Assembly (NCBI GenBank): GCA_046351255.1
Contig: JAXLYU010000014.1
Location: 123,730-187,729 of the forward strand
From: Labilithrix sp.
GTDB taxonomy: Bacteria; Myxococcota_A; Polyangia; Polyangiales; Polyangiaceae
Reading direction: 5' to 3'
Length of the DNA: 64,000 nucleotides
Positions 22,855 through 47,270 of this stretch are shown here, in pieces. A program made the translations under genes and the position numbers. Every line of letters begins with the position of its first letter. Position 1 is the stretch's first letter. The notes under the pieces were generated by a model. That model had not been told where the DNA came from, did not search any database, and was given only the letters and a program-made list of their open reading frames with translations.

Positions 22855-23148
22855 CCCCATCACCTCCCGGACAAGGCTGCAGTAGCTCGCCCGTATGTGC
22901 AAGCTCGCTGCGAGCGATGCGCCGCCGTCGCCGTTCATGTCGGCGCTGCACGACGTCAAGCAGGCCGCGTCGCGACACACGAACGAGCCGCAGGGGACGG
23001 GATGCGACGCCGATCCATGAAATGTGTATGATGCACCGATCTGAGCCGGGCGAGGTGACGAGCTCCAGGCCGCCTCCGGGAGCGTCCCGCCCGCGTCGCG
23101 ACGGCGCGCCGACGCGGATCGACGCTGGCGGTGAAGTCATTTCTTGCG

Positions 23149-23841
23149 CTACGGCTTCGAAACGCAGGCGTGGACCTTGTGGTCGCCGTCCGTACCCTTC
23201 ACGGCGATGAGCTCGCACTTGTCCGTCGCCTTGCACTCGTTGCCCTTGAGGCACTGGCGGAGGCACGGGCTGTCCTCCTTTCGCTGGACGTAGCCGGGGC
23301 GGCAGTTGCCCCAGAGGCCCTTCGACGCCGGCCCCGTGCTCTTCAGCGTGGTCGCCGTGGTGGGGCGGCGCGCGACCTCCACGACCTTCTCCGAGGAAGG
23401 CTCTCCGTCGACGCCCGTCGTGCGCGTGACGACGAGCGCGCCGCTCGCGAGCTTTGCGGTGAAGAAGTTGTAGGCGGGGGTGCCCCCGCAGACGAATTCG
23501 CTCGAGGTGGCCACGCCCTTCTGCATCGCGCAGGCCTCCACCGTCCCCGAGGGCTCCGAGTCGGCGGTGGCGTCGAGCTCGCCGAGCGCGATGGTCTGTC
23601 CGGCGGTGATGACGGAGACCGCCACGTGCGCGTTCGCGGCGTTCGTGGCCTTCCACGTGAGCGTGAGCACGCCATTCTCGGCGGCGAGCGAGGAGGCCGA
23701 GGTCACCGGGGTCACGGCCGACGGCGCCGGCGCCGGTGCCGACGCCGGCGGCGGCGCGCTCGCGTCGGGCACCGGCTCGGTGGTCTTCGTGGTGTCTTTG
23801 CAGGCGGCGATGAGGAGCAGGCAGGTGAGCCAGCGGCGCAT
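23149..23841 (-). CDS. Hypothetical lipoprotein with Cys-rich C-terminus
   Basis: MRRWLTCLLLIAACKD lipobox; Pro/Ala linker; C-terminal CRPGYVQRKEDSPCLRQCLKGNECKATDKCE. Confidence 0.55.
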   Translation of the reverse strand: MRRWLTCLLLIAACKDTTKTTEPVPDASAPPPASAPAPAPSAVTPVTSASSLAAENGVLTLTWKATNAANAHVAVSVITAGQTIALGELDATADSEPSGTVEACAMQKGVATSSEFVCGGTPAYNFFTAKLASGALVVTRTTGVDGEPSSEKVVEVARRPTTATTLKSTGPASKGLWGNCRPGYVQRKEDSPCLRQCLKGNECKATDKCELIAVKGTDGDHKVHACVSKP

Positions 23842-23855
23842 CGTGGCAGGCTACC

Positions 23856-24368
23856 TCAATCGGCGGCCTTCGATTTCGCGCGACGGCGGTGGTGCTTCGG
23901 CGCCGGCTTCTCCGGCGCCTTCTCCGACGCGGCCGGCTTGGCCTCCTCCTTCGGTTTGTCCGAGGCGGCGGGGGCGGGGAGCGACGCGGCGGGCGCCGGG
24001 GGAGGGGGCGCGACGGCGGCGGCGGCGGGCTTGTCGTCCTTCGGCTTCGGCGCCGGCTCGCTCGGGCTCCGTGCGATCACGACGGCGGCGATGGCGAGAC
24101 CGACCGCGACCACGACGCCGAAGATCTTGCCGCGCTGGCGCCGGCTCTCTCCGTCCGGATCTTCGGTGATGCCGAACGACGACATCGAGAACGACGAGGC
24201 CGGCTGCTCCGACGCGCGGATCGAGACCGCGGCGGGCATCAGGCTCGGCGAGTGATCGGCGACCGTGGTGGGCGGATCGTCTCCGGCGTGATCGGGAAAC
24301 ATCCCGGTGTCGCGGCCGACGCCGCGCGCGACGAAATCCATGTGCGTGTGCCAGACCTCGGTTTTCAT
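23856..24368 (-). CDS. Single-pass membrane protein with Pro/Ala/Lys-rich tail
   Basis: TM helix IFGVVVAVGLAIAAVVIA followed by PAPKPKDDKPAAAAVAPPPPAPAAS...KHHRRRAKSK; internal Met start. Confidence 0.45.
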   Translation of the reverse strand: MKTEVWHTHMDFVARGVGRDTGMFPDHAGDDPPTTVADHSPSLMPAAVSIRASEQPASSFSMSSFGITEDPDGESRRQRGKIFGVVVAVGLAIAAVVIARSPSEPAPKPKDDKPAAAAVAPPPPAPAASLPAPAASDKPKEEAKPAASEKAPEKPAPKHHRRRAKSKAAD

Positions 24369-24458
24369 CTGCGCGCGTTCTACGGCGTCCGCCGCAAAAG
24401 ACGCCTGAAAGCAGCGCTGAGACTTCGCGAGGACACGCGCGGCGCGCGATGATTGCAG

Positions 24459-24485
24459 CACCAACGAATTGTTTCGTTCGTGGTG
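24459..24485. promoter_or_regulatory. Imperfect palindrome CACCAACGAAttgtTTCGTtcgTGGTG in an AT-richer divergent promoter region
   Basis: Nested 5 bp inverted repeats read directly between divergent genes (23856-24368 minus, 24633-25400 plus). Confidence 0.25.
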
Positions 24486-24632
24486 TTGCGCCGAGCGCTC
24501 GCTGGCCGAGGGCCTGGCCAGCTACCCCTCGGACTGTCCCAACCTTCGGACACCAGCATTGCGCAGCAGGCGCGTGATTTCGTGGCGTTAGGGGCCCGCC
24601 TACCTCGGCATACGATGTGCGTGCGCGCGGGC

Positions 24633-25400
24633 ATGCCTTTCCTCCGCGCTGCCTCTCTCTCCTTCTTCATCCTTGCCGCCGGCTGCTCCGCCGGGCCCGA
24701 GACGAGCACCGCTCCGAGCGACGTCATCGGAGGCGTCTCGACGACGGACTTTCCGGACGTCGGGCAGATCACCTCCGGCTGCACGGCGACGCTCATTCAT
24801 CCGCGCGCGATGCTCACCGCTTCGCACTGCTGCCAGCGGGAGACGAGCTGCAAGAAGGTGAAGATCGGCGGTCGGACGATCGGCACCACCGCGACCAATC
24901 ATCCCGACTTCGTCGTCGCCCCGGAGGGAGGCATCACGCCGAGCGTCGACGTGTCGATCCTCGTCCTCGACGAGCGCGTCGACGACATCGCGCCGCGACG
25001 CCTCGCCGTGACGCCGCCTGCGACGGGGCGGCCGATCGTGTTCGTCGGCTTCGGCTGCAGCGCGTTCGGCGGCGCCGGATACGGCACGAAGCGGACGGGG
25101 ACGAACGAGATCGACTTCTTCGGGGCCAACGTCGACGGCGCCGATCAGGCTCGCTTCGCCCACACGTTCGGCTGGCACTCGAAGCCGCTCGCTTCGCTCG
25201 ATGGAGGCACGCCCAACGACGACGCCAACATCTGCCCCGGCGACTCGGGAGGGCCCACGTTCTGGCAGGAGGACGGCAAGGCCGTGCTCGCCGGCGTTCA
25301 CACGCTCGTCGGTCCGACGTTCGGCTACTCGTGCCAGGTGAGCGAGAACCGCGCGTGGATCGACAGCCAGCTCGCGAAGCTCGAGCCCGTGCGCGACTGA
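24633..25400 (+). CDS. Trypsin-like serine protease (S1 family), secreted lipoprotein
   Basis: TASHC (catalytic His), DVSILVLDE (Asp), GDSGGP (catalytic Ser); signal FFILAAGCSAG. Confidence 0.8.
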   Translation: MPFLRAASLSFFILAAGCSAGPETSTAPSDVIGGVSTTDFPDVGQITSGCTATLIHPRAMLTASHCCQRETSCKKVKIGGRTIGTTATNHPDFVVAPEGGITPSVDVSILVLDERVDDIAPRRLAVTPPATGRPIVFVGFGCSAFGGAGYGTKRTGTNEIDFFGANVDGADQARFAHTFGWHSKPLASLDGGTPNDDANICPGDSGGPTFWQEDGKAVLAGVHTLVGPTFGYSCQVSENRAWIDSQLAKLEPVRD

Positions 25401-25404
25401 GCCT

Positions 25405-26142
25405 TCAACGCAGGTAGAGCCACGTGATGGCTCCGGCGACGGCGAGAAGTCCGACGCCCGCGAAGACGTCGCCGACGATGAGCTTCGTACGCGCGGCATC
25501 GATATCGGACGTCGCGCAGGCACCGGTGGGCGCACAACTCGACTCGAGGTCGTCATGCTCACCGCGACCGAGGGCCCAGAGGACGCTCCCGCCCGCGACG
25601 AGCCCGAGGCCGACCGCGCCGAGCACGATCGCCGGGACGCGACTGCCGCGCTCTGCGGGGGCCGGCTTCGAGGCGGGCAGATCGGGAGCGAGATCGATCG
25701 CAAGCACGCGCGCGCGCTCCCCGTTGCCGACGACGATCCGGCGCGAGACGACGGCGCCGCCGCGTTGGACGCGCACGACATGCTCGCCAGCGTCGAGGGC
25801 GATCGGCCGCCCATCGGCCTTGTCGGCCACGCGTGCGTCGTCGACGGAGATCCGCACATCGACGATGTCGTCGCCGCGTCCGTCGCGCACTCGAACCACG
25901 ATCGTCGGGAGCTCCGTCTCGACCTCCGACAGCCAGCGCGCGCAATCCCGCCGCACGACGGCGGGACACGACTCGCGCGCACACTCGATGAGCGCGTCCC
26001 GCGCGGTACGGAGCTTGTTCTCCTGTCGCGCCCGCTGCGCTTCTTCGGCCCGATCCGCGCAGCGGTCGGCGTTGTCCGCCAGCGCCGGCGTCGCCCGTGC
26101 GAAGAGCACGACGGCGAGCGCGGCAGCAGCGAGACGCGTCAT
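25405..26142 (-). CDS. Secreted two-TM 'PEGA-like' protein, paralogue of the 46338-47270 product (module A)
   Basis: Signal peptide, Cys-bearing helical N-domain (CADRAEEA...ECARESCPAVVRRDCARW), beta-sandwich region (VVRVRDGRGDDIVDVRISVDDARV...HVVRV), Pro linker, TM, short loop with CAPTGAC, second TM; same architecture as the 46338 gene; start overlaps kinase stop. Confidence 0.55.
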   Translation of the reverse strand: MTRLAAAALAVVLFARATPALADNADRCADRAEEAQRARQENKLRTARDALIECARESCPAVVRRDCARWLSEVETELPTIVVRVRDGRGDDIVDVRISVDDARVADKADGRPIALDAGEHVVRVQRGGAVVSRRIVVGNGERARVLAIDLAPDLPASKPAPAERGSRVPAIVLGAVGLGLVAGGSVLWALGRGEHDDLESSCAPTGACATSDIDAARTKLIVGDVFAGVGLLAVAGAITWLYLR

Positions 26143-27638
26143 CGAATACAGGCACGTTTGTACCGACGCAGCCCGCTTGCGTCTACGACGAACGGCGGGT
26201 CGCACTCGTCCGTCGCATGCGCGCGCTCCGTCGTCGTCGCCGCCGGCGCCGCGCGCTTCGAGGACGTCTTCTTCGGCCTCGGCTCGGCCATCGGCGTCAC
26301 GGTCGCGAGCGGGGGCGCGGCCGGAGTCGTGGTCACGGCGTCCATCGCTTCCATCGCGGGTGGCGGTGCGAGGACGGCGGCCGAAGCCGCCGGCGCCGTC
26401 TTCGCGAACGCGACCGAGCCGCCAAACGCGGCGAGCGCGCCTGCTGCGGCAGCCGTCACGAGCGCGGCTCCGAGAAGGACCGAGCGCCGTCGGCGCGGCG
26501 GCTTCATCACCGGCGGCGGCATGACCACGGTACGCACGAGCGCCGCCCGGCCCGCGCTCGACCGCTCGGCGTGCACGATGGCCGCGGGGGCGGCGGCGGC
26601 GAGGGAGCGGCGCGTAGCGAGCGCTTCCTTGGCGAGCGACTCGACCCAGGCGGCGACCTCCGTTCGCGTCGCGACTCTCCCCTCAGCGGCGATCGACAGG
26701 GCCTCGGCCATGGTCGCCGCCGACGGGTACCGTTCGCTGGGCACGCTCGAGAGCGCGCGCATGACGATCGCGTCGAGCGCGGGCGTGACGTGCGCGGCGT
26801 GTGCGCTCGGCGCGCTCGTCGCACCGGCGAGCACGTGGCCAATGAGCTCGAGATCGGTCTCCGCGTCGAAGAGCCGCTGGTTCGCGAGAAGCTCCCAGAG
26901 CACGATACCCGCGGCGTAGACATCGCTCGCGATCGAGGCATCTCCGCCAAGCTGCTCGGGCGCCATGTAGGCCAGCTTGCCTTTGACTTGACCGTCACGG
27001 GTCTCGTGGATCCGGCCCCGGGCCTTCGCGATGCCGAAGTCGAGGACGCGCGCCACGCCGTCCGTGCCCACGATGACGTTCTGCGGTGAAACGTCACGAT
27101 GGACGATGCCGAGAGGTTCTCCCTTCTCGTCGGTCGCGCGGTGTGCCGCGTCGAGGCCGGCGAGGAGGTCGAGCCCGATCGCGATCGCGACCGCGGTCGG
27201 TGGCGCGCTCCCGGACGCGGTGAGCGCCGCGAGTGACTCTCCCTCGATGTAAGGCATCACCGCCCAGACGCGCGTGCCGTCGTCGACGAGATCGAGCGTC
27301 GGCACCACGTTCGGATGCATGATCCGACCTGCCAGCCGCGCCTCGTCGAGGAACATCGCGACGAGATCGGGATTCGAGGCGAGATGCGGATGGAGCTCCT
27401 TGATCGCGACCGCCTGGGTACAGCCCGAGGGGCCTCGACGGCGTCCAAAGCGTACGACCGCCATGCCGCCCGTTCCGATCGGGAAGCCAAGCTCGTACAT
27501 GCCGCCGGTGGTGTCGGAGACCATCGCTTCGGTCCCCGTAGCGTGGATCGTGCCGTCGATCGGGCGCCGCGGCCGGTTCATTCCACGGCGGAAAATGCCG
27601 CCTCCGCGAGCCGCCTCCTCCTCGCGGCCATCCGGCAT
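26139..27638 (-). CDS. Membrane-anchored Ser/Thr protein kinase (module A)
   Basis: YELGFPIGTGGMAVV (Gly loop), AIKEL (VAIK Lys), HRDVSPQNVIV (catalytic loop), DFGIAK (DFG), YMAPE (APE); C-terminal TM SVLLGAALVTAAAAGALAAF and Pro-rich tail. Confidence 0.85.
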   Translation of the reverse strand: MPDGREEEAARGGGIFRRGMNRPRRPIDGTIHATGTEAMVSDTTGGMYELGFPIGTGGMAVVRFGRRRGPSGCTQAVAIKELHPHLASNPDLVAMFLDEARLAGRIMHPNVVPTLDLVDDGTRVWAVMPYIEGESLAALTASGSAPPTAVAIAIGLDLLAGLDAAHRATDEKGEPLGIVHRDVSPQNVIVGTDGVARVLDFGIAKARGRIHETRDGQVKGKLAYMAPEQLGGDASIASDVYAAGIVLWELLANQRLFDAETDLELIGHVLAGATSAPSAHAAHVTPALDAIVMRALSSVPSERYPSAATMAEALSIAAEGRVATRTEVAAWVESLAKEALATRRSLAAAAPAAIVHAERSSAGRAALVRTVVMPPPVMKPPRRRRSVLLGAALVTAAAAGALAAFGGSVAFAKTAPAASAAVLAPPPAMEAMDAVTTTPAAPPLATVTPMAEPRPKKTSSKRAAPAATTTERAHATDECDPPFVVDASGLRRYKRACIR

Positions 27639-27660
27639 GGTGGATCCCTATGACCCCACC

Positions 27661-28926
27661 TCACGGCTTCGGGCGGAGCTCCGCCATGAGGAGGTGGAAG
27701 TAGCGCCGTGTCAGGCCCGAGGCGGCCGCCGCACGCGTCACGTTGCCATCATGCTGTGAGAGCGCGCGCTCGACGTAGCGGCGCTCGAGCTCGCGAACGA
27801 CGAGCTGCCGCGCGGCGGCGAGCGGGAGATCCAGCTCGAGTGTCTTCGCGATGACGTTCTCGCGGAGCGCGCTCGGCGTCGCGTGCGCAGTGAGCTTCGA
27901 CCCATACTCCTCCGCCGCGTCCGGTCCCAGCGCGACGGCACGGGCGATCGCGCTCTGCAGCTCGCGGACGTTTCCGGGCCATGATGCACGCGCGAGCTTG
28001 ACGAGGAGCGGCGCGGGTGGCTCGAGGTTTGGCGCGTAGATCGACCAGAAGTGCTGGGCGAGCAGGGCGACATCGCCATGACGCCGGCGGAGCGGAGGCA
28101 TCTCGATCCGCGCGCCCGCGAGGCGATACATGAGATCCTCGCGTAGGCGACCATCCTGCACGTCGCGATCGGTGTCCCGGCGCGCGCTCGCGATCACGCG
28201 CACTCGTTGCGCTCGAGGCTCGTCCACGAGTCGGACGAGCGAGGCCTGCGCCTCCGCTTCGAGATCGCCGATCTCGGACAAGACGAGGGTGCCTCCCGCA
28301 GCGCGGGCGAAGGCGCTCGCGAGGTCCTCCGCGCTCGAGGCGGCGCATTCGACGACCACGAACGGCCCAGCCGCCGTGGCACCGGCCTCGTGGATCGCCT
28401 CCGCCAGGAGCTCTTTCCCCGTGCCGGTCTCGCCCTCGATGATGAGCGGTAGGTCCGATCCAGCGAGCTTCTCCGCCACCTCGAAGACGCGCTGCATCTC
28501 GAAGCTGGCCCCGACGACTCGGCCGAAGCCGCGCCGCGAGCTCGGGAGCACAGGCGCGGCGATCGGAGCTCGCGCAATGCGGAGCTGCGTGTCGCCGATC
28601 ACGATGAGCTCACCTCCGGCGAGGAGCGCCTGCACGATCCTCAGACCGCCCACCGCGGTGCCGTTGCTCGAGCCGAGATCGGTCGCGCGGAGGAGCGCCG
28701 CCGCCGGTGCGATCTCGAGGTGGCGGCGCGACACCCGGAGATCGCGTAGGCGAAGATCGCAGAGCGGACCTTGGCCGATCAGGTAGGACGACCGCTTCGA
28801 CCAATCGAGGAGCAGGGACTGTCCTGCGTCGACGCCGTGGGTGACCCGCAGGATGAAGACCGGCGCGGGGGAGCCGTCGTCTGCCAGCGGGCCATCGGTC
28901 ATCGTCAGCAGCTCTCCGCTCACCAT
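27661..28926 (-). CDS. FHA-domain sigma54-type enhancer-binding protein with deleted GAFTGA segment and Fis-type HTH (module A)
   Basis: N-terminal FHA (RSSYLIGQGPLCDLRLRDLRVSRRHLEI...SSNGT), AAA+ Walker A GETGTGKE, Walker B/arginine-finger regions, C-terminal HTH LSQHDGNVTRAAAASGLTRRYF; relative to the paralogue at 47267 the [15 protein letters not shown] stretch is missing. Confidence 0.8.
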   Translation of the reverse strand: MVSGELLTMTDGPLADDGSPAPVFILRVTHGVDAGQSLLLDWSKRSSYLIGQGPLCDLRLRDLRVSRRHLEIAPAAALLRATDLGSSNGTAVGGLRIVQALLAGGELIVIGDTQLRIARAPIAAPVLPSSRRGFGRVVGASFEMQRVFEVAEKLAGSDLPLIIEGETGTGKELLAEAIHEAGATAAGPFVVVECAASSAEDLASAFARAAGGTLVLSEIGDLEAEAQASLVRLVDEPRAQRVRVIASARRDTDRDVQDGRLREDLMYRLAGARIEMPPLRRRHGDVALLAQHFWSIYAPNLEPPAPLLVKLARASWPGNVRELQSAIARAVALGPDAAEEYGSKLTAHATPSALRENVIAKTLELDLPLAAARQLVVRELERRYVERALSQHDGNVTRAAAASGLTRRYFHLLMAELRPKP

Positions 28927-28952
28927 GACCGAATGCTATCGTGCGACCGGCG

Positions 28953-30032
28953 ATGCTCGCGCGCCGGCTTCTTCTCCCGCTCGCCTTCTCCACGGCCGCG
29001 TGCGCGCTCCTGACGAGCTTCGATGGGTTCGACGAGCCGAAGACCCAGCGCGACGACGGGGGCAGCCTGGAGCTCGACGCAGGCGTCGAGGCGGCGTCGA
29101 GCTGCCACAAGCAAGTCCCCGATCCTCCGCGCACCGGCGGCTCGAGCAAGAACGCGGGCTCCTTCGTCGCGGCCGCGCGCTCGATGACCTTCGTCGGCTC
29201 TCCCGGTTTCGATCTGGACGTCGCCTGCACGTGCCCCGCACCGGCGAGCTGTCGAGGCGCGAAACCGGACCAGCCCTGCGATGCAGACGGCGGCGTCGAC
29301 AACGCGGCTGCCGACCTCTTTGCGTTCGCCTCCGTGTTCCTCGACGGCGGTCTCGACGAGTCCGGGCTCGCGCTCGGCCTCAGCCGGGGACGTTACGGCC
29401 TTCTCTTCAAGATCGATGGCTGGAACGGGGAGCGCAACGACGATGCGGTCGCGGTGTCGTTCGCGAACGCGTTCGACGTCGTTCCAGAGGGCGCCGGTGC
29501 GCGCTTCGACGGTAGCGATGTCTGGCGCGTCGACGAAGAGAGCTACATCCCGAACAGCACCATCCCGGCCTACCCGGCCGAGAGCTGGGTGAAGGATGGC
29601 GTCCTCGTCGCGCGGTTCGTTCGTCTCCCGCTCAAGCTGAGAATCCCCACCGTGAATGATCGCTGGCTGCTCCTCCCCGTGGCCATCGAGGACGCGACCA
29701 TGAGCGCTCGTCTCGAGGCGGGCGGCGGCGGCGTCACTCTCACGAAGGGTGAGCTCGGCGGCCGCCTCTCGATGGCCTCCGTCTTTCGAATCATCCAGAG
29801 CGTCGGTGGTTGCCTCGAACCCGCGAGCGCGACGACCCCCGCGATCGTGTCGAATCTCTGCGCGCGGCGCGACATCATGCTGGCGTCGAAGGACGACAAC
29901 CGCGATCTCGGGTGCGATGCGCTCTCGGTCGGGATCGCCTTCGAGGCCACCCCCGCGAAGGTCGCTGACACGCCGGGCGTCCCGACCGACGAGGCGCCGT
30001 GCGCGAGCGGCGTGCTGCCCACCTGTCCCTGA
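28953..30032 (+). CDS. Secreted hypothetical protein
   Basis: Signal MLARRLLLPLAFSTAACALL; 360 aa; conserved Cys; start only 27 nt from the divergent activator start. Confidence 0.5.
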   Translation: MLARRLLLPLAFSTAACALLTSFDGFDEPKTQRDDGGSLELDAGVEAASSCHKQVPDPPRTGGSSKNAGSFVAAARSMTFVGSPGFDLDVACTCPAPASCRGAKPDQPCDADGGVDNAAADLFAFASVFLDGGLDESGLALGLSRGRYGLLFKIDGWNGERNDDAVAVSFANAFDVVPEGAGARFDGSDVWRVDEESYIPNSTIPAYPAESWVKDGVLVARFVRLPLKLRIPTVNDRWLLLPVAIEDATMSARLEAGGGGVTLTKGELGGRLSMASVFRIIQSVGGCLEPASATTPAIVSNLCARRDIMLASKDDNRDLGCDALSVGIAFEATPAKVADTPGVPTDEAPCASGVLPTCP

Positions 30033-30041
30033 TCCGTTCAT

Positions 30042-31814
30042 TCAGTGGACCCCGCGCTCCCCGGCCGCCGGGTAGACCTTTCCGTCGATCGTCCAGTCGA
30101 TCGGCGTGCGTGCCTTCACGACGGTCTGGATGTCCTCGATCGCTTCGAGCGCGGCGCGACTCGAGAGGCTCCATCGCCCCATATGAGCGGCGGCGGCGCC
30201 GGCCGCGGTGCCGGTGGCCCACTCGATTGGATGGAGCCGCGTCGCCGCGTTGGCGAGGAACGACTGGGCGATCGTCTTCCCCGCGACGAGGAGGTTCGGG
30301 ACATCGCGGTTCGTCAGCGCGCGGAAGGGAATGTAGAAGGGCAGCGTCTCGTGCCCCGCGCTCGCGATGTACGCGGGGTAGCGGCAGCCCGAGAGGCCGT
30401 GGATGTCCATCGCGTAGGAGCCGATCGCGACGCGGTCGAAGAAGCGCTTGCCCGTGATTTGCGAGGCCGGACCGCGGAGGTCGTTCGACGTCAGGACGAA
30501 ATTGTCGAGACCGATCGAGCGGCGGGTGTCACGGACGTACGGCACCTTGGTGAGGCCATGACCAGTCCCGAGCACGGTGTGATCGAGCGAGACCCGCTCT
30601 CCCATCTCCCCGCCCGCTCGTTTGAAGAACGAGTGCCAGCCGTACGCGTGGCGTTCGGCGCCGGCCATGACGGAGAGGTCGACGCCGCCCTTCCAGTCGG
30701 ACGCCTGGGCCCGCGTCGCCGCCTTCGAGAGGAAGAGATATCCGAACGGGTAGTCGTTGCCGGGGTTCCAGTTCTGAAGCGAGAGATCGTTCGTCGCCGC
30801 TCCCGCCGCGCTGCCGCGCACGCGTCGGTAGCGCCAGATCTTGTCCCACTTCTGAGCGGTGGTCTCGTTGGCGCCGACGGAGAGAGAGTAGAACGCGCTC
30901 GACTCGGCGGTCGGCTCCGGAAGCGCCGCCTCGTTCACGGGGCTGGCCTCGAGCTTTTCGACGAGGCCGTACACGATCGCCTGACCGCAGCGGTCGTCGC
31001 CTTCGAGCGCGCCCTCGCGCGGCTCGACGCCCTGAAGATACGACGCGTTCGACAGCGCGAGGAGCTCGCCCCACTCCGTCGCGTCGATGAATACGGCGGG
31101 CCGGTCGTAGCCCGACAGGAGCTCGATCGTCTGCTTGTCATAGCGGGCCGAGGGGGTCGGGTCGTACCAGTCGGGCAGGTCTTCGGAGAGCAGGCGGTCG
31201 TACCCGCCCCATGCGACGCCGCTCTTTGCCGTTCGCTGCACGACGACGAGCTTCTCGATGTCGTGGCCGCGCATGTCGACGCGCTTCGGCACCGCCTGCG
31301 CGAGCACGAGGAGGGTCCCGTTGCGCGTGTATCTCGCGACCAGGCTCCCGAGCGCACCCGTGAGGAGTGACTTCGGCTGGTAGCAGTTCTTGCTCACCCA
31401 GCAGCCGCCTGGGTTCCCCATCGCTTCGGTCATCGCGAAGAAGCTCGGCGTCACGTTCGCGCGGGCCTTGGCCGCAGCGCCCACGTCGAGCGAACCGACT
31501 TTGTGCCATGCCCAGTCGACGGCGCTGACGCCGCTCGCGGTGAGCTGACCGCCGACCCACTCCGTCGGCTCGACGAGGCACGTCCGCGCGCCGCTGTCGG
31601 CGGCCGCCACCGCGGCCGCGATCGCAGCCGTCGTTCCTCCGGCGATCACGACATCGCAGTGCTTGCGCGTCGCGGTGTCGACGGGCTTCGCGGGGAAGCT
31701 GGCGAGCTCCTGCGATGACTCGGAGCTCTCTTCTTCTGGTGGCGGAGGCGCACATCCCATCGCGAGGCAGGAGAGGGAAAGAACGGCAGGCAGGATCGAG
31801 CTCGTACGAGTCAT
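30042..31814 (-). CDS. FAD-dependent oxidoreductase lipoprotein (FAD_oxidored / PF12831-like)
   Basis: Lipobox LSCLAMGCAPPP; dinucleotide fold DVVIAGGTTAAIAAAVAAADSGARTCLVE...GGQLTASGVSA. Confidence 0.7.
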   Translation of the reverse strand: MTRTSSILPAVLSLSCLAMGCAPPPPEEESSESSQELASFPAKPVDTATRKHCDVVIAGGTTAAIAAAVAAADSGARTCLVEPTEWVGGQLTASGVSAVDWAWHKVGSLDVGAAAKARANVTPSFFAMTEAMGNPGGCWVSKNCYQPKSLLTGALGSLVARYTRNGTLLVLAQAVPKRVDMRGHDIEKLVVVQRTAKSGVAWGGYDRLLSEDLPDWYDPTPSARYDKQTIELLSGYDRPAVFIDATEWGELLALSNASYLQGVEPREGALEGDDRCGQAIVYGLVEKLEASPVNEAALPEPTAESSAFYSLSVGANETTAQKWDKIWRYRRVRGSAAGAATNDLSLQNWNPGNDYPFGYLFLSKAATRAQASDWKGGVDLSVMAGAERHAYGWHSFFKRAGGEMGERVSLDHTVLGTGHGLTKVPYVRDTRRSIGLDNFVLTSNDLRGPASQITGKRFFDRVAIGSYAMDIHGLSGCRYPAYIASAGHETLPFYIPFRALTNRDVPNLLVAGKTIAQSFLANAATRLHPIEWATGTAAGAAAAHMGRWSLSSRAALEAIEDIQTVVKARTPIDWTIDGKVYPAAGERGVH

Positions 31815-32063
31815 GGGGGCGTCTCCTACGCGCCGCTCGAGCACACCTCGGACCACACTGTCTGTCTAATGATTTCAAACGGTTATGGCGCGAGGGATCC
31901 GACGGATCTCGGTGGACGGACCAGCGGTCGTCCGCCAGCGGACCCACGCGGATCGTGGACCTGGGATCTGGGAGTTCTCGCTCGACGAAAACCGCGAGGA
32001 AACGTGACAGCCTCGAGCGGCACGGTCCTCGCACCTTTGACCACTCATACCGAGGAGGTCGTC

Positions 32064-33068
32064 ATGAAAGCGATCGCGATGGGGATCATGGTCTCGAGCG
32101 TGCTGGTGGGCTGTGCGACGAACGTCGCGGTCGAAGAGGAGGAGGGGGCGTCGTCGGAGGCGGTGACCGCATGCGTCGCGCCGAGCAAGGACCGCGTCGG
32201 CAACTCCCTGCAATCCGTCTATGACGCGCTCTACCGCCCCGAGACGGGCACCGGGTTCCAGCGCGTGAACAAGGGCGGGCTGCCGAGCGCGATCGCGCAG
32301 AAGTCGTGGTCATCGCCGGTCAGTGTGCCCACGTCGCAGTGGCGCGCGTTCGGCGTCATCAGCACGCCGCTCGAGAAGAAGAACGGCGGTCACGAAGGCG
32401 TCGACATCGGGGTCGGGCGCAATACGCCGGTCAAGGCGGCGGGCGCCGGTACGATCGTCTATCGCCTCAACAGTTGCACGGAGGGGGACCGGTGGTGCGG
32501 CAACGGCTGGGGCAATCACATCGTCGTCGATCACGGCGACCACGTGTTCACCCGGTATGCCCATCTGACGAAGACGTCGGTCGCGCTCGGCGCGAAGGTC
32601 GACGCCGGCGACGTCGTCGGTCTCTCTGGCACGACGGGCCTCAGCGACGGTCCACACCTTCACTTCGAGCTCGGATTTCACGGCGGAGCCCTCGACGGGT
32701 GCGCCCCTCCCCAGAACTTCTGGCAGGACTCCGGCGGCACGCGTGGCGGCGTCTACGACCCGCGCCTTCTCTCCTTCGGCGCCGCGGCGACGCGCGAGAA
32801 TGCGATCGGCAAGTCGTGCCGCATCTCGTCGGGCGGCGACCGCACGAGCAATGTGCGGCCGGAACCGAACAGCACGGCGGCACCCTACGGCGTCGTGCTC
32901 GCGGGGCAGCGCGCGCAGGTGAGGGGCTTCCTCGGCGACTGGGCGAGCATCGAGCGTCTCACGCTCGACGGCACCGGAACGAAGGCGGCCGGGACCGACG
33001 TGGGGGCTGCCGTGGGCCTCACGGCGTTCGTCCACGCGAGCCAGCTCGACCTCGCGGATTGTCACTGA
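32064..33068 (+). CDS. M23 family metallopeptidase (LytM-like) lipoprotein
   Basis: HEGVDIGVGRNTPVKAAGAGTIVY...NHIVVDHGDHVFTRYAHL...GLSGTTGLSDGPHLHFE (HxxxD and HxH zinc motifs); lipobox LVGCA; GAGGAGG RBS before the ATG. Confidence 0.8.
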   Translation: MKAIAMGIMVSSVLVGCATNVAVEEEEGASSEAVTACVAPSKDRVGNSLQSVYDALYRPETGTGFQRVNKGGLPSAIAQKSWSSPVSVPTSQWRAFGVISTPLEKKNGGHEGVDIGVGRNTPVKAAGAGTIVYRLNSCTEGDRWCGNGWGNHIVVDHGDHVFTRYAHLTKTSVALGAKVDAGDVVGLSGTTGLSDGPHLHFELGFHGGALDGCAPPQNFWQDSGGTRGGVYDPRLLSFGAAATRENAIGKSCRISSGGDRTSNVRPEPNSTAAPYGVVLAGQRAQVRGFLGDWASIERLTLDGTGTKAAGTDVGAAVGLTAFVHASQLDLADCH

Positions 33069-33098
33069 GGCTGCGAATTGCTGATACGCTTCGCAGGG

Positions 33099-34385
33099 AT
33101 GGGGCGTCGCTCGGTCGAGATTGCATCTGCGCTTTTTTTCGGCGCCGCGGTGCTCCTTGCCTGCAACTCCATCATCGGCGTCGAGGACGTCCGCCAGAAG
33201 AGCACCACCTACCGCGACGGCGGCAGCTCGGGCAGCAGCGGCGTCGGTGACGACGACGACGACGACGACATCGTGAACCCGATCGACGGCGGGCCCACCG
33301 AGCCATCGCTGCCTGCGCTCGCGCTCGGCGCGTCCCACTCGTGCGCGCGCATGGTCGACGGCACGGTGCGCTGCTGGGGCGAGTCGCGGCTCGGCCAGCT
33401 CGGCGACGGGATCAACCTCGACGGCGGGCCGGAGCCCCAGCCCTCGCTGAAGCCGAAGTCGGTGCCCGGCATCACGGACGCGGTCGCGATCGGCGCAGGC
33501 TCGAACCACACATGCGTCATCCGCACGGGCGGCAAGCTCTCGTGCTGGGGCTTCAATTACAGCGGTCAGCTCGGGACCGGGAACAAGAACACCGCCTCCG
33601 CGCCGGTCGACGTCCCCAACCTCGGCGAGGTCACGGCCGTCGCCGGTGGCGGCACCGCGACCTGCGTGGCGCTCGCGGACAAGACGGCGTCTTGCTGGGG
33701 CGACAATGATTTCGGGCAGCTCGGCGACGGCACCAAGAACGAGTCGTCGAGCCCGGTGAAGGTGAAGGACCTGACCGGCGTGGTCGCGGTCGCGGTCGGC
33801 TCGCTCCACAGCTGCGCCGTCGTCGACGTCGGCGACGTCTACTGCTGGGGCAACAACGACAAGGGCCAGCTCGGCAACGGGAGCACCACGCAGAGCTTGG
33901 TCCCGCAGAAGGTCGGCGGTCTCACCGACGCCGTGCAGGTGGTCGCGGCGGCGAGCTTCTCGTGCGCGCGGCAGAAGAACGGCCGGGTCGCGTGCTGGGG
34001 CAACAACGACGTCGGCCAGCTCGGCAACGGCGTCGCCTCGCCCACGCCGAACCCGTCGCCCATCCTCGTAGCCTCGCTGACCGACGCGGTGTCGCTCGGC
34101 GCGGGGCTGCAACACGCATGCGCCGTTCGCCAGACGGGTGAGGTGGTGTGCTGGGGCGAAGGTGACTGGGGGCAGCTCGGCTCCGGCCGCGACGCGGGCT
34201 CGCCGATGATCGTCACGGTGGCGTCGCTGAAGGACGCGCGCGCGGTGTGGGGCGGCGCGTTCCGCACCTGCGCGGTTCGTGCCGGCGGCAAGGCGCAGTG
34301 CTGGGGCACGAACAACTACGGCGAGCTCGGGGACGGCAGCAAGAACCGCGCGTACCTGCCGGTGGACATCGTCGACTTCCCGTAG
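33099..34385 (+). CDS. RCC1-repeat (ATS1-like) beta-propeller secreted protein
   Basis: Seven or more repeats of hsCalxxDGxvxCWGxNxxGQLGxG (e.g. SHSCARMVDGTVRCWGESRLGQLGDG); poly-Asp linker near the N-terminus. Confidence 0.75.
   Translation: MGRRSVEIASALFFGAAVLLACNSIIGVEDVRQKSTTYRDGGSSGSSGVGDDDDDDDIVNPIDGGPTEPSLPALALGASHSCARMVDGTVRCWGESRLGQLGDGINLDGGPEPQPSLKPKSVPGITDAVAIGAGSNHTCVIRTGGKLSCWGFNYSGQLGTGNKNTASAPVDVPNLGEVTAVAGGGTATCVALADKTASCWGDNDFGQLGDGTKNESSSPVKVKDLTGVVAVAVGSLHSCAVVDVGDVYCWGNNDKGQLGNGSTTQSLVPQKVGGLTDAVQVVAAASFSCARQKNGRVACWGNNDVGQLGNGVASPTPNPSPILVASLTDAVSLGAGLQHACAVRQTGEVVCWGEGDWGQLGSGRDAGSPMIVTVASLKDARAVWGGAFRTCAVRAGGKAQCWGTNNYGELGDGSKNRAYLPVDIVDFP
33249..33269 (+). repeat. 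(GAC)7 trinucleotide repeat encoding DDDDDDD
   Basis: gacgacgacgacgacgacgac read directly inside the RCC1 gene. Confidence 0.6.
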
Positions 34386-43188: not shown

Positions 43189-43262
43189 GAGACAGGTGTT
43201 CCACGCGACGGAACACCTCTCGCGCGCCGGCCTGCATTTCCCGGGGAAATGAGGGGTTTTGG
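43189..43262 (+). terminator. Probable tandem-hairpin intrinsic terminator ending the 34.5-43.2 kb operon
   Basis: GAGACAGGTGTTCC-acgcgac-GGAACACCTCTCTC (13/14 bp stem), then CATTTCCC-g-GGGAAATG followed by GGGGTTTTGG; begins 14 nt after the CBS gene stop. Confidence 0.4.
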
Positions 43263-43332
43263 CGGTGGCGAAGCGCTTGCTCTTTCTGGCGGAGACGCGA
43301 AGGTCGCGCGTCTCTTTCGGAAGGAATCGAAG

Positions 43333-44874
43333 ATGAAGATGGGTGTCGTTGGTCTCGTGAGCAGCGTGGCGGCGGTGATGATCGCGGCGACGGTCGGCTG
43401 TGTGACGCAGAGCACGAAGGACGGAGAGAGCAGCTCGGGGGGAACGAACGACGCGGGAGGTGGCGACGGCGGCAGCGGTGTCGAGGATGGGAGCGCGACC
43501 GGTGACGGCGGCGCGACCGAGCAGGGGCCCACGCGCTACGCCTGCCCGATCGACAAGCCGCAGAAGGTGTACGGCTACGCGCTGAACGCGAAGTCGAGCA
43601 TCGACGCGCCCGAGACCTGGACGCCCGACAACGTCTATCTCGTCTTCGGGCCGCTCCACATCCAGAAGCCGCTGACGATCCAGGCCGGCACCGTCGTGTG
43701 CTTCGACTACGGCCCGCCCGGCGCGAACGGCTCCGCCGAGCCCCCGCCGGGCGAGATGCTCCTCGAGGAGGGCGGCGCCATCGACGCGCAAGGTACGCCG
43801 ACCTCGCACGTCGTCTTCACTGCGAAGTCGGACGGGAGGGGTCCCGAGCAGCTCTACTGGAAGGGCCTCACCGCGTTCTCCGGCTGGACCGGCTTCAAGC
43901 TCGTTTACTCGGACATCTACAACGGCGGTCTCTCCGCTGGTGGCGCGCCGCTCGAGGTCATGGCCGACAACGGGCTCGCGCCGCTCGTCGACTGGCAGAA
44001 CGTGAAGGTCTACTCGTCGCAGCGCGTCGGCATCAAGATGCTCGCGGAGAAGGGCTTCACCCCGGAGACGAAGCTCACCTTCGTGAACTTCGCGGACGAG
44101 TACGTCACCAAGTACGCGAGCGACGCGAACTACGAGGACTACTACGACCACGGCTATCCCGTGCTTCGTCTGAGCCACTACGGCGCCTCGTCGGTGAAGC
44201 CGGGCATGTTCGACATCGGCGATCCGGCGAAGGTCCCGCCCGCGACGCGCTACGTGCAGCTCGATCACGCCGAAGGCGCGATCGTCTCGAAGGACTACCA
44301 CCTGCACAAGCTCCCGCCGGGCCTCGCCTGGCGCAACGTGCAGAACGAGCTGCTCGACGCGACGCTCACCATCGATCCAGGCACCACGATCGCCGTCGCC
44401 AACGGCGGCACCTGGTTCATCGGCGACAAGGGCGGCTGCAGCGGCGCGGGCTCGCTCGTCGCGGTCGGCACTGCGGCGGAGCCGATCACGTTCACGAACG
44501 ACATCCCGTGGCAGGGGCCGGCGGAGAAGTCGCCGACGAAGAGCCCCGGCATCACCATCAACTCGTGCGCGTTCGCGAGCACGAAGCTCGACTACGTCGT
44601 GTTCGACGGGCTCGGCGCGCAGTCGGCGGTCTCCGTGCACTGCAAGGGCGAGAGCCCGGCGTTCGCGGGCGAGGTGAACTTCCTCTACTCGGGCGACGGC
44701 GTCGACCGCGAGGGCCCGCCGATCACGCACTCCACCTTCAAGAGCTCGGCGGGGTACGGCATCCTCCGCGTGGACGGCTCGCACATCACGACCGACTACA
44801 CGAAGGCCGAATTCGGCAACACGTTCGAAGGGTTCACGGACCCGGCGAAGCCCGCGCAGCCGACCTGCAACTGA
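43333..44874 (+). CDS. Hypothetical secreted lipoprotein (beta-helix-like)
   Basis: MKMGVVGLVSSVAAVMIAATVGCVTQ lipobox; Gly/Asp/Ser linker; 513 aa beta-rich body; AAGGAA RBS. Confidence 0.55.
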   Translation: MKMGVVGLVSSVAAVMIAATVGCVTQSTKDGESSSGGTNDAGGGDGGSGVEDGSATGDGGATEQGPTRYACPIDKPQKVYGYALNAKSSIDAPETWTPDNVYLVFGPLHIQKPLTIQAGTVVCFDYGPPGANGSAEPPPGEMLLEEGGAIDAQGTPTSHVVFTAKSDGRGPEQLYWKGLTAFSGWTGFKLVYSDIYNGGLSAGGAPLEVMADNGLAPLVDWQNVKVYSSQRVGIKMLAEKGFTPETKLTFVNFADEYVTKYASDANYEDYYDHGYPVLRLSHYGASSVKPGMFDIGDPAKVPPATRYVQLDHAEGAIVSKDYHLHKLPPGLAWRNVQNELLDATLTIDPGTTIAVANGGTWFIGDKGGCSGAGSLVAVGTAAEPITFTNDIPWQGPAEKSPTKSPGITINSCAFASTKLDYVVFDGLGAQSAVSVHCKGESPAFAGEVNFLYSGDGVDREGPPITHSTFKSSAGYGILRVDGSHITTDYTKAEFGNTFEGFTDPAKPAQPTCN

Positions 44875-44898: not shown

Positions 44899-46338
44899 TT
44901 GTGCGGTACGCTGCCATCGATGGCGGATGTCCGCGCAGCCTCCCCCGGGATCCCCGAGACGGGTCAGATCGTCTCGGGGAAATTCCGGATCGAAGAGCCG
45001 CTCGGCCGCGGCGGTCTCGGCGTGGTCGTGGCGGCGACGCACCTTCAGCTCGGACAGCGCGTCGCGATCAAGTTCCTCGACGCGCGCGTGCTCGCGGCGG
45101 TCGACGGGGTCGCGCGATTCCTTCGTGAGGCGCGCTCCGCCGCCACCATCGAGAGCGAGCACTGCGTTCGCATCCTCGATTTCGGCACCGCGGAGGACGG
45201 CGCGCCCTACATCGTCATGGAGTGCCTGCGTGGTCACGACCTCGCGACCGAGCTTCGCGAGCACGGTGCGCTCGAGGTCGAGCGCGCGGTCGACTACGTC
45301 CTCCAGGCCTGCGACGCGGTCGCGGAGGCCCATGCGCACGGGATCATCCATCGTGACCTCAAGCCCGCCAACCTGTTCCTCGCCCGCCGCGAGGCTCGCG
45401 GCTCATTGAAGGAAGGCGCCCTGCTCGTGAAGGTGCTCGATTTCGGCGTCGCGAAGGTCCTCGACGAGGGTGACGGTCGCATGGGCCTCACGGGCGAGTC
45501 CGCGGTGATCGGCACGAGCTACTACATGGCGCCCGAGCAGGTCCGCGACTCGAGCCGCGTCGACGCTCGCACCGACGTCTGGGCGCTCGGCGTGATCCTC
45601 TTCGAGCTCCTCACGGGGGAGCGTCCCTTCGACGGGCCGACCGCCTCCGCCGTCACCGCCGCGATCGTCGCGGATCCGCCACGGCTCCTCGACGACGTTC
45701 GCCCCGACGTGCCGCCTGCCATCCGCGCCGTCATCGCGAAGTGCCTCGCGAAGGATCCGGCGCGCCGCTGGCCCGACGTGCGCGCCTTCGCGCAAGCGCT
45801 CGAAGACGCGCTCGGCGGCTCCGCGCGCCTCCGCCTCGTGCGACCCTGGTCCGAGACCGAGCGCGGCTCGGCGGGGCGGCTCGTGGTCTCCACTGCACCC
45901 GTGTCGAGCCCCGAGGCCCTCGCCGCGACGGAGCTCGCGTCGAGCGAGTCGGGCCAGCAGGTGAGCGAGCCGGTGAGCGAGCGCGCGGACGCGAGCCCGC
46001 GACGGTCGCGCGCGCCGATCGCGATCGCGGCCGTCCTCGGCGTCGGGCTCGCCGTCGGATGGGCGGTGCGCGCGCTTGCGCCCTCGACACCGCCGGAGCC
46101 GGTGCGCGCGACGGTCGATGCGGCCGCGAGCACGGTGGCGAGCGTGCTGCCGAGCGTGACCGCCTCCGTCGAGCCGCCGCCTCCGGTCACGGTGGCGATC
46201 ACGTCGGCCGCGCCGCCGGCGAGCTCCGCGCGCGGTATGGTGCACGCGCCGCGCATCGGCACCAAGCCAATCGCGCCGGCGCCACCGCGCGCCACCGATC
46301 CGAAGGGCATCGATGATCCGAACCTGACGAACCGCTGA
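44899..46338 (+). CDS. Membrane-anchored Ser/Thr protein kinase (module B)
   Basis: LGRGGLGVVV (Gly loop), VAIKFL, HRDLKPANLFL, DFGVAK, YMAPE; C-terminal TM IAIAAVLGVGLAVGWAV plus Pro-rich tail; an alternative Met start lies 21 nt downstream. Confidence 0.85.
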   Translation: MCGTLPSMADVRAASPGIPETGQIVSGKFRIEEPLGRGGLGVVVAATHLQLGQRVAIKFLDARVLAAVDGVARFLREARSAATIESEHCVRILDFGTAEDGAPYIVMECLRGHDLATELREHGALEVERAVDYVLQACDAVAEAHAHGIIHRDLKPANLFLARREARGSLKEGALLVKVLDFGVAKVLDEGDGRMGLTGESAVIGTSYYMAPEQVRDSSRVDARTDVWALGVILFELLTGERPFDGPTASAVTAAIVADPPRLLDDVRPDVPPAIRAVIAKCLAKDPARRWPDVRAFAQALEDALGGSARLRLVRPWSETERGSAGRLVVSTAPVSSPEALAATELASSESGQQVSEPVSERADASPRRSRAPIAIAAVLGVGLAVGWAVRALAPSTPPEPVRATVDAAASTVASVLPSVTASVEPPPPVTVAITSAAPPASSARGMVHAPRIGTKPIAPAPPRATDPKGIDDPNLTNR

Positions 46339-47270
46339 TGAACCCCCGATTTTTACCTGTTCTCGTGACGTTCGCGTCTGCGCTCGTCGCCGTGAGCGCG
46401 CCGGCGCTCGCGGACGACGCTGCCACGCGCGCCGCGGAGGTGCTCTTCACCGAGGGGCGCGACCTCATGCGCGCCGAGAAGTACGACGAGGCCTGTCCGA
46501 AGCTCGCGCGGAGCCACGAGCTCGCGCCTGCGGTGGGCACGCTCCTGAACCTCGGCCTCTGCTACGAGAAGAGCGGTCGGACCGCGAGCGCGTGGCTTCG
46601 CTACAAGGAGGCGGCCTCCATCGCGGCGCAGAAGCACGACGCGCGCGAGACCTACGCGCGTGACCGCGTCTCCTCCCTCGAGATCGAGCTCGCACGTCTC
46701 ACGGTCGACGTCGCGCCGGACGTGGCCAAGGCCAGCCCGCACGTGGTGCTCGACGGCGCGGACCTGCCCAACGCGTCGTGGGGCGTGGCGATCCCGATCG
46801 ATCCGGGCGATCACGTCGTCGTCGCGATCGCGAGCGAGGACCGGACGGTCACGAAGCGCACGCACATCGACGCGAAGACGAAGGTGACGCTGACGATCGA
46901 CGCGTTCGAGACGGCCGGACGCCCCGGTCCTGGCCCCGGTCCGACGGCGCCCGTCACGCGTCCGCTGGTCCTCGCCGAGCCTCCGCCCGCGCCGCACGAG
47001 CGCTCCTCCGTCCAGCGTCCGCTCTCCTACGCCGTGCTCGGGCTCGGCGGCGCGGCGCTCCTGGCCGGTGGCGTCGTCGCGACGATCGCGAAGGTCCGCT
47101 ACGACGGCGTGGAAGACGAGTGCGGCGGCAATCGCTGCACGCCCTCGGCGCGAGACACGCGAAACGGCGCCTTCGATCAGGCCGACGTCGCGAGCGTGCT
47201 GGGGATCTCCGGCCTCGTCGTGCTCGCGGCGGGCAGCGTGCTCTGGCTCACCTCGCGCGGGGAGCGATGA
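46338..47270 (+). CDS. Secreted two-TM 'PEGA-like' protein (module B)
   Basis: Signal [25 protein letters not shown]; TPR-like Cys-bearing helical region ([10 protein letters not shown]...[10 protein letters not shown]); beta-sandwich (HVVLDGADL...[15 protein letters not shown]); PGPGPGP linker; TM; CGGNRC loop; TM; TGATG overlap upstream and ATGA downstream. Confidence 0.55.

Follow-up and report, generated by a model that had tools for sequence, protein, structure and literature searches.

How do bacterial Ser/Thr kinases that carry no folded sensor domain perceive a signal, and what do they act upon? Myxobacteria possess hundreds of eukaryote-like kinases whose inputs are largely unknown, many of them without a recognisable sensor domain. 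We addressed this question with a locus in a stretch of 64,000 nucleotides from Labilithrix sp. (contig JAXLYU010000014.1, positions 123,730 to 187,729 of the forward strand; G+C about 70%), hereafter the window, to which all coordinates refer. Three minus-strand open reading frames (ORFs), together called module A, encode in this order a regulator with FHA, AAA+ and helix-turn-helix (HTH) domains (27661-28926), a single-pass membrane Ser/Thr kinase of the Hanks type (26139-27638, longest ORF 499 aa) and a membrane protein, the partner (25405-26142). A first-pass annotation had presented them as one coupled unit made of a sigma-54 activator, a kinase and a PEGA-like exported protein, the last of which recurs in a second module of the window (module B, 44920-48589, plus strand) and might be the sensor or partner of the kinase ectodomain. 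We found that the C-terminal tail of the kinase changes with the type of partner and not with the lineage of the catalytic domain. We lean towards viewing module A as a self-contained three-gene signalling operon built on a split receptor kinase, in which the kinase tail would dock on the partner and the regulator would work independently of sigma-54.

In module A, the catalytic domain of the kinase (residues 49-305, 26724-27494) is followed by one transmembrane (TM) segment (residues 386-411, 26406-26483), which aligns with a hydrophobic block in all orthologues, and by an extracytoplasmic tail of 88 residues (26142-26405). This tail is a Pro/Ala/Thr-rich spacer that leads to a Cys-bracketed motif, CDPPFVVDASGLRRYKRAC (26148-26204), ending two residues short of the stop codon. 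The 19-residue motif (C-D-P-P-F-x2-D-x2-G-x-R-x2-K-x2-C) is conserved in the kinases encoded beside partners that have the same four-Cys N-terminal domain (N-domain) as the module A partner (A-type partners). All 15 complete kinases of this kind end in C-x-[PS]-P-[FYW]-..-D-..-G-..-K-..-C, and the kinase tail of locus L014, cut by the contig end, begins with CDPPY. Partners of the module B kind, in which a TPR-like N-domain replaces the four-Cys domain (B-type partners), are accompanied by another tail. The strict Cys motif was found in none of 80 B-type loci (0 of the 33 kinases there), and these kinases have long Pro/Ala/Ser tails with a short end motif (DFLPSDRK, DVLDGRR, DKMLENR; DPNLTNR in the window). 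A loose pattern for the B-type end fits 25 kinase ORFs out of 33; the 8 that it misses are mostly truncated or do not adjoin a partner. As first noted, both kinases of the window have Pro-rich extracytoplasmic tails, rich in Ala as well and each preceded by a single TM segment.

Catalytic lineage and partner type are exchanged at four loci. In L005, a catalytic domain like that of kinase B (238 bits, against 70 to kinase A; catalytic loop HRDLKPQN) stands beside an A-type partner, and the tail is of the Cys type. In L055, L081 and L100, domains like that of kinase A (HRDVSPQN) stand beside B-type partners, and the tails are non-Cys. Since the tail matches the partner type in four loci of four, it follows the partner and not the catalytic lineage. 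As the tail motif tracks the type of partner N-domain, we infer docking of the tail on the partner, in other words a receptor split between two genes. The proposal that the membrane protein is the partner of the kinase ectodomain thus gains support from this co-variation, in addition to the synteny with kinase genes described below.

The module A partner (245 aa from its ATG) has a 100% identical counterpart, annotated as hypothetical, in a metagenome-assembled genome (MAG) of Labilithrix sp. (locus tag U0270_29835), and it has no significant match in Pfam or NCBIfam. Alignments and a structural model place in it a signal peptide with an A-x-A site (26077-26142), a three-helix N-domain with four Cys (25912-26076), a transthyretin-like beta-sandwich (25687-25911) and two hydrophobic helices (25567-25638 and 25411-25482) on either side of a Cys loop (25516-25536). 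The architecture is uniform throughout the family, namely an A-x-A signal peptide, a helical N-domain, the beta-sandwich, a Pro-rich linker and two hydrophobic helices flanking a Cys-pair loop. A-type N-domains have four invariant Cys (C28, C54, C59, C67) and an invariant W-L-x-E. Both window copies possess the features by which two alignments define the family, a D-x-G-x-H motif in the sandwich and a C-x4-12-C loop between the helices. The initial description of a Cys-bearing helical domain, a beta-sandwich and a CxxxxC loop between two TM helices was correct for the domains and the helices; the loop is C-x5-C in module A (CAPTGAC), and C-x4-C only in module B (CGGNRC). Likewise, the term PEGA-like is justified at the level of the fold only, as PEGA (PF08308) matched neither window partner in Pfam and only 2 of 30 B-type relatives, weakly (E about 0.001).

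Judged by profile methods, the partners of modules A and B are homologous, with different N-domains. BLASTP aligned them weakly, over little more than one TM segment, and the non-homology that BLASTP alone would imply is ruled out by the profiles. An hhalign comparison of the two family alignments matched 233 columns, from the sandwich through the linker to the hairpin, with a probability of 99.7% (E 2.5e-26), and in reciprocal searches of the window with hidden Markov models (HMMs), each partner HMM found the other partner and nothing else (E 2.5e-17 and 5.9e-8). The products of 25405-26142 and 46338-47270 are therefore members of one family, and its recurrence in module B, claimed in the first-pass annotation, is borne out.

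A word-indexed search with the module A partner found only 15 relatives, and one with the module B partner more than 380. The profile of the 15 relatives, run against 1.84 billion representatives (clusters at 50% identity), matched 37,204 sequences at E<=1e-3 and 5,359 at E<=1e-30, and the best 150 matches are nearly all full-length (257-324 aa). Named sources are Polyangiaceae, Labilithrix, Byssovorax and one Vicinamibacterales MAG, with the product always called 'hypothetical'. One protein from this profile search (P0143, 422 aa) has two tandem copies of the four-Cys N-domain and sandwich on a single hairpin anchor, and the ectodomain module can therefore duplicate.

In most members, some 28 residues (..P..GG......G.F) extend beyond the second helix as a C-terminal tail. 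Phe closes this tail in 142 of 159 A-type members, and Phe or Trp does so in 108 of the 120 of the B-type; taken together, 250 of the 279 family sequences (P0002-P0282) end in one of these two residues. Both window partners lack the tail, ending 1-6 residues past helix 2 (25405-25410 and 47253-47270), as do a few close relatives (P0008, P0017). Such an aromatic C-terminus is reminiscent of an outer-membrane beta-signal, an envelope sorting signal or a C-terminus recognised by PDZ domains. In an AlphaFold2 (AF2) model of a tail-bearing B-type member, this tail stays disordered. Lys and Arg are equally dense ahead of helix 1, in the loop and past helix 2. Because there are a signal peptide and four Cys, the N-domain is probably periplasmic, and the Cys loop would therefore lie in the cytoplasm.

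From these elements, a mechanism can be proposed. One half of the receptor would be the kinase, single-pass and of the Hanks type, with nothing outside the cytoplasm except a flexible Pro/Ala-rich spacer and the 19-residue Cys-bracketed motif. The other half would be the separately encoded partner, Sec-exported and held in the membrane by its helical hairpin, with the four-Cys helical domain and the transthyretin-like sandwich. The terminal motif of the kinase would dock on the N-domain of the partner, which would supply the ligand- or envelope-sensing surface that is missing from the kinase. In module B, the TPR-like N-domain would hold the C-terminal kinase motif [LF]-x-x-R-[KRE] in the manner of the TPR clamps that bind Hsp70 and Hsp90. 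Changes in the partner would then alter kinase autophosphorylation, and the phosphorylated kinase would recruit or modify the FHA-AAA+-HTH protein of the same operon.

The docking idea is compatible with the B-type N-domain as modelled, although the model does not prove it. TPR_2 scores 25.5 bits on the module B partner (cut-off 27) and is found weakly in 21 of 30 relatives. In the AF2 model of a B-type member from Polyangium aurulentum (P0132; mean predicted local distance difference test, pLDDT, 85.5), the N-domain consists of five helices and resembles 3-TPR domains. Its best matches in the PDB include TPR domains that clamp C-terminal peptides, namely those of Sgt2 (5lyp), Tom71 with the tail of Ssa1 (3fp4) or Hsp82, Hop and FKBP52 (E 0.006-0.07).

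The partner might, on the other hand, sense nothing. It could be a co-expressed envelope component, a substrate of the kinase or a scaffold that localises it, for example with the sandwich bound to cell wall or polysaccharide. Sandwiches of the transthyretin, CarboxypepD_reg and PEGA kind are common in envelope proteins, many family members have no adjoining kinase, the Phe/Trp-ending tail of most members is like a signal for envelope sorting or PDZ recognition, and the putative cytoplasmic loop contains conserved Ser/Thr. Yet such a role would leave unexplained why the kinase tail switches with the N-domain type regardless of catalytic lineage, and why these kinases carry no other ectodomain; we thus hold it to be rather unlikely.

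For the A-type pairs alone, one might also think of a periplasmic redox sensor, in which the kinase is gated by disulfide exchange between its two tail Cys and the four Cys of the partner. All six Cys are indeed invariant in A-type pairs, and both elements lie past a signal peptide or a TM segment, in an oxidising compartment. However, the B-type pairs retain this architecture with no Cys in the kinase tail, so redox sensing is no general principle, and the Cys may be mere structural disulfides. This appears distinctly improbable.

What would such a receptor control? The regulator of module A (421 aa; alternative start M9, 28902) matches the Pfam families FHA (PF00498; 38.9 bits, cut-off 20.7; residues 27-119, 28570-28848), Sigma54_activat (97.1 bits, cut-off 20.2), Sigma54_activ_2 (85.7 bits), AAA_lid_14 and HTH_8 (E 5.9e-7), the latter with a Fis-type DNA-binding motif at residues 377-408 (27703-27798). 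Yop-YscD_cpl also matches (46 bits, cut-off 33.2). This would suggest a canonical sigma-54 enhancer-binding protein (EBP), switched on by the kinase through FHA-phosphothreonine recognition and remodelling the sigma-54 holoenzyme through ATP hydrolysis. Sigma54_activat, AAA_lid_14 and HTH_8 all score above threshold, in NCBI the identical protein, from a Labilithrix sp. MAG, bears the name 'sigma 54-interacting transcriptional regulator', and the first-pass annotation had likewise read it as a sigma-54 activator.

The details of the AAA+ domain argue against this. The Sigma54_activat (PF00158) match is split into two stretches, and in an alignment to ZraR (1ojl) and FleQ (5exp), the regulator has a gap of 19 residues exactly over ELFGHEKGAFTGA and a second one, of 10 residues, over the pre-sensor-I loop. 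Alignment to ZraR, FleQ and orthologues places the site of the deleted GAFTGA/L1 loop at CAASSAEDLASAF (28309-28347). Walker A is intact (GETGTGK, 28414-28434), whereas Walker B is degenerate (GGTLVLSEI, 28270-28296), with Ser in place of Asp (GTLVLSE). No G[AS]F[TS]GA occurs in the regulator or its closest orthologues, and the closest syntenic ones (L001, L002 and L006) have both the lack of GAFTGA and the Walker B Ser in common. The more distant trios of L004 and L009, and module B, keep an intact GAF[TS]GA and a D-E Walker B, as the ancestral module probably did. Among the 120 best database relatives of the regulator, GAFTGA is found in none of ranks 1-60 and in 9 of 30, then 22 of 30, in the lower ranks; the Asp-to-Ser change is confined to the 13 closest. 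Moreover, no promoter of the sigma-54 type (TGGCAC-N5-TTGCW-like, at most 2 mismatches) was found in 22913-30623, and 21 such sites were found in the whole window against 13.5 expected.

Some documented EBPs have no GAFTGA and work with sigma-70 or as repressors, among them VpsR, TyrR, HupR, HsfA, PhhR and NtrX (PMC6158489). The module A regulator fits the definition of an atypical EBP given there, with an EBP-like AAA+ domain and an HTH, GAFTGA gone and Walker B degenerate. Because of the two lost loops, the Walker B Ser, the existence of atypical EBPs and the lack of a sigma-54 promoter nearby, the label of sigma-54 activator is not supported for module A, and probably describes the ancestor of the module. 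With the FHA domain also devoid of its canonical Arg (see below), a canonical EBP is very unlikely. We consider it most likely, by analogy with VpsR, TyrR and HupR, that the regulator is a DNA-binding activator or repressor independent of sigma-54, and its output would be of the sigma-70 type. At two other loci (L011 and L013), the EBP-like proteins encoded upstream of kinase-partner pairs have REC inputs, GAFPEA or GAFEGA, a GEPGTEK Walker A and LAE or LEE at Walker B, as if the sigma-54 and ATPase machinery had decayed independently in modules of this kind.

The same annotation had supposed that the FHA domain reads phosphothreonine (pThr) and that the kinase thereby controls the regulator. 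This part is weakened, though it remains plausible from synteny. The S-R-x-H motif (SRRH, 28720-28734) and the N-G motif (28657-28668) are kept, and both are invariant in the 120 closest relatives. The canonical Gly-Arg is replaced by Gly-Gln (28765-28779), and at the Arg position the 120 relatives have Gln (85), Lys (18), Thr (11), Ser (4) or His (2), never Arg.

The kinase, for its part, has a Pkinase score of 103.3 bits and its VAIK (AVAIKE), DFG (LDFG) and APE (MAPE) motifs are all present; its best NCBIfam model is PknB_PASTA_kin, below the cut-off of that model. The catalytic loop of the kinase, HRDVSPQN (27078-27101), has Ser where Lys is canonical. This sequence, and not HRDxKxxN, is found in 15 of the 16 kinases adjoining A-type partners, and those of Pendulispora and L102 have HRDVTPEN. 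There is thus a large kinase subfamily (window, L001-L019, L101, L102) with HRDV[ST]P[QE]N for HRDxKxxN and the other catalytic motifs intact; a literature search found no paper that mentions this variant.

Is the association of the three genes itself secure? Trios ordered as regulator, kinase and partner also occur in L001, L002, L004, L006, L101 and L102, in each of which an FHA-EBP precedes the kinase; L101 is the cultured Pendulispora rubella (CP089983.1, 9.607-9.618 Mb) and L102 is another Labilithrix MAG. The locus searches used subsets of the family alignments, the full alignments being short of conserved stretches. A same-strand kinase lies immediately upstream of the partner in 13 of 16 A-type loci; in L009 the kinase is divergent and further off, behind an FHA-EBP, and two loci have no kinase. 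L014, with too little upstream DNA, was left out of this count; it has a divergent kinase, and a REC-type EBP downstream of the partner. For the B-type, 33 of the 80 metagenome loci were counted, those in which an upstream kinase was seen or which had at least 1.8 kb of upstream and 0.9 kb of downstream DNA. The kinase is upstream on the same strand in 21, divergent in 2, downstream in 1 and absent in 9. The expected co-occurrence of the membrane-protein family with Ser/Thr kinases was therefore found, at 13 of 16 loci of the A-type and some 24 of 33 of the B-type. What flanks the trio varies from locus to locus, which argues that it is the unit that is conserved and not a genome segment.

In module B, the trio is complete and in permuted order, with the kinase (44920-46338, plus strand), the partner (46338-47270, plus strand, 310 aa) and the FHA-EBP (47267-48589, plus strand) joined by a TGATG (1-nt overlap) and an ATGA. 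Unlike their module A counterparts, the EBP here has a canonical GAFTGA and a DE Walker B, and the kinase a canonical HRDLKPAN loop. This kinase crosses the membrane with a single TM segment, and its Pro/Ala-rich tail closes with ..KGIDDPNLTNR. Directly upstream of this kinase, on the same strand, is a gene for a 541-aa secreted protein without a Pfam match (43249-44874).

That the genes are chance neighbours, or merely share the ancestry of a genome segment, is effectively refuted, for although myxobacterial genomes are so rich in kinases and EBPs that fortuitous adjacency does occur, the density of kinase genes would predict it at only a few per cent of loci, against the counts above, the trio or pair is kept while its flanks vary, module B retains the parts in another order, and kinase and partner genes overlap by four bases. 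Myxococcus xanthus, for example, has 99 Ser/Thr protein kinases and 53 EBPs (PMC4320627).

Several points nevertheless weigh against the scheme of a split receptor acting on the regulator. Only a minority of the kinase-partner pairs have an EBP gene with them, and at some loci REC replaces FHA, as in the EBP-like proteins encoded ahead of the kinase in L011 and L013. Roughly one in four B-type members lies in an unrelated context with no kinase close by, so the partner family is not obligately linked to kinases in cis. The fold matches of the TPR-like domain are weak, and small TPR domains are all alike. The charge counts favour neither membrane topology of the partner. The kinase has lost the catalytic-loop Lys and the FHA domain has Gln where the phosphate-binding Arg is expected, so that phosphotransfer and pThr reading are both putative. 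We conclude that the conserved core is most likely a kinase whose ectodomain has been outsourced, for which an FHA-type EBP would be one frequent output. We further suggest, tentatively, as an extension that falls somewhat short of probable, that many Hanks-type kinases of the Polyangiales use a modular split receptor, made of a leash, a docking motif and one co-receptor family with interchangeable, co-evolving N-domains, of which FHA-input, sigma-54-independent EBP derivatives would be one output.

A second recurrent context of the family was seen in four metagenome loci (L076, L080, L085 and L099), in which a B-type member follows genes for an ABC-2 permease, an ABC_transp_aux (GldG-like) protein and a DUF4340 protein, with no kinase. 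In PADLOC, neither partner has a match, and the kinase and AAA+ proteins show only generic similarity (PD-T4-6 and RtcR/PspF, respectively); the reading as an anti-phage defence system was therefore dropped.

As for the structure of the module A locus, the G+C signature at third codon positions (GC3) backs all three frames, and the three genes on one strand, in the order first described, are confirmed. The stop codon of the kinase and the start codon of the partner share an ATGA overlap (..CGATGACG..), also as described. The gap of 22 nt reported between regulator and kinase holds only for the longest kinase ORF. Since the kinase orthologues of L001 and L006 carry in-frame stops upstream of the Met that aligns with M39 of the window, translation probably starts at M39 (ATG at 27524), which would make the gap about 136 nt. 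The flanking genes, a divergent ORF (28941-30032, plus strand) on one side and a convergent gene for a trypsin-like protease (24453-25400, plus strand) on the other, bracket the three genes as one unit, a conclusion that the recurrence of the trio elsewhere and its permuted form in module B reinforce. A minus-strand ORF at 28920-30041 was considered as an upstream member of the operon and rejected, its GC3 being 0.68 against 0.86 for the plus-strand ORF at 28941-30032.

The product of this divergent ORF is an exported Cys-rich protein of 363 aa, which begins like a lipoprotein (..LAFSTAAC..) and has no Pfam match. About 15-50 nt separate its start from that of the regulator, which leaves very little space for two promoters; scans for sigma-70 promoters and terminators gave nothing informative near module A. 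The surroundings also include genes for an M23 peptidase and an RCC1-repeat (WD40_RLD) protein (31869-34385, plus strand), besides the protease. These neighbours with envelope or secreted functions are not kept beside the trio in other loci.

The findings are of interest for two reasons. The locus offers a testable answer to the question of input for a large subset of myxobacterial kinases, in the form of a dedicated co-receptor family matched through a short C-terminal motif, and the cultured Pendulispora rubella, whose complete genome carries the same trio, is usable for experiments. In addition, a sizeable clade annotated as 'sigma-54-interacting transcriptional regulator' is, from its sequence features, predicted to be unable to contact sigma-54, which bears on regulon predictions.

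How do these proteins compare with known systems? The partner family, its pairing with kinases, the tail motifs and an FHA-input clade of atypical EBPs all went unmentioned in the literature searched and in Pfam, NCBIfam and PADLOC, though descriptions may exist elsewhere; nor did the literature searches find a link between PEGA and kinases. A paper on ambruticin sensing proved unrelated. The sandwich of the partner resembles, in fold, domains of the PEGA, CarboxypepD_reg and transthyretin-like kinds (PF08308, PF13620), but its full architecture, with the N-domain, the sandwich, the Cys-loop hairpin and the aromatic C-terminus, is in no curated model searched. The TPR carboxylate clamps for Hsp70 and Hsp90 (Hop, Sgt2, Tom71, FKBP52; 5lyp, 3fp4, 1qz2) are a proposed analogy for module B, in which a small TPR-like domain is matched with a protein that conserves, outside the cytoplasm, only a short C-terminal motif following a disordered linker. 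They differ in that the similarity is weak and at fold level, the compartment is the eukaryotic cytosol and not the periplasm, and the motif is EEVD and not [LF]-x-x-R-[KRE]; module A is further removed, with a four-Cys helical domain and a motif of the disulfide type.

The control of FHA-EBPs by kinases is, as an idea, already known from Myxococcus: Jelsbak, Givskov and Kaiser reportedly described, in 2005, FHA-domain EBPs of M. xanthus and proposed that Ser/Thr kinases control them. Module A shares with these the succession of FHA, NtrC-type AAA+ and Fis-type HTH, the kinase-rich myxobacterial background and a Ser/Thr rather than a histidine kinase as the feeder. Unlike them, it has the kinase in the same operon, a third conserved gene, a regulator that has lost GAFTGA and the Walker B Asp, and an FHA subfamily with Gln, Lys or Thr at the position of the canonical Arg. 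Atypical EBPs without GAFTGA are likewise known (PMC6158489), and the module A regulator resembles them in this loss, in its non-consensus Walker B (N-D in VpsR, S-E in module A) and in having kept the AAA+ fold and the HTH. Their inputs are REC or ACT/PAS domains, whereas module A has an FHA input and an operon shared with a Ser/Thr kinase.

The comparison closest to our question is with the kinase itself. It has in common with receptors of the PASTA type a cytoplasmic kinase domain, a juxtamembrane linker, a single TM segment and an extracytoplasmic C-terminus. In these Hanks-type receptor kinases (PknB, PrkC and StkP), the sensor domains are PASTA repeats, whereas outside the cytoplasm the module A kinase offers a low-complexity spacer and a motif some 19 residues long, but no folded domain, and the Lys of its catalytic loop is replaced by Ser (by Thr in Pendulispora). 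Its sensing surface has apparently been outsourced to a separate gene. If this is true, the split receptor would constitute a previously unrecognised and widespread bacterial architecture of receptor and co-receptor.

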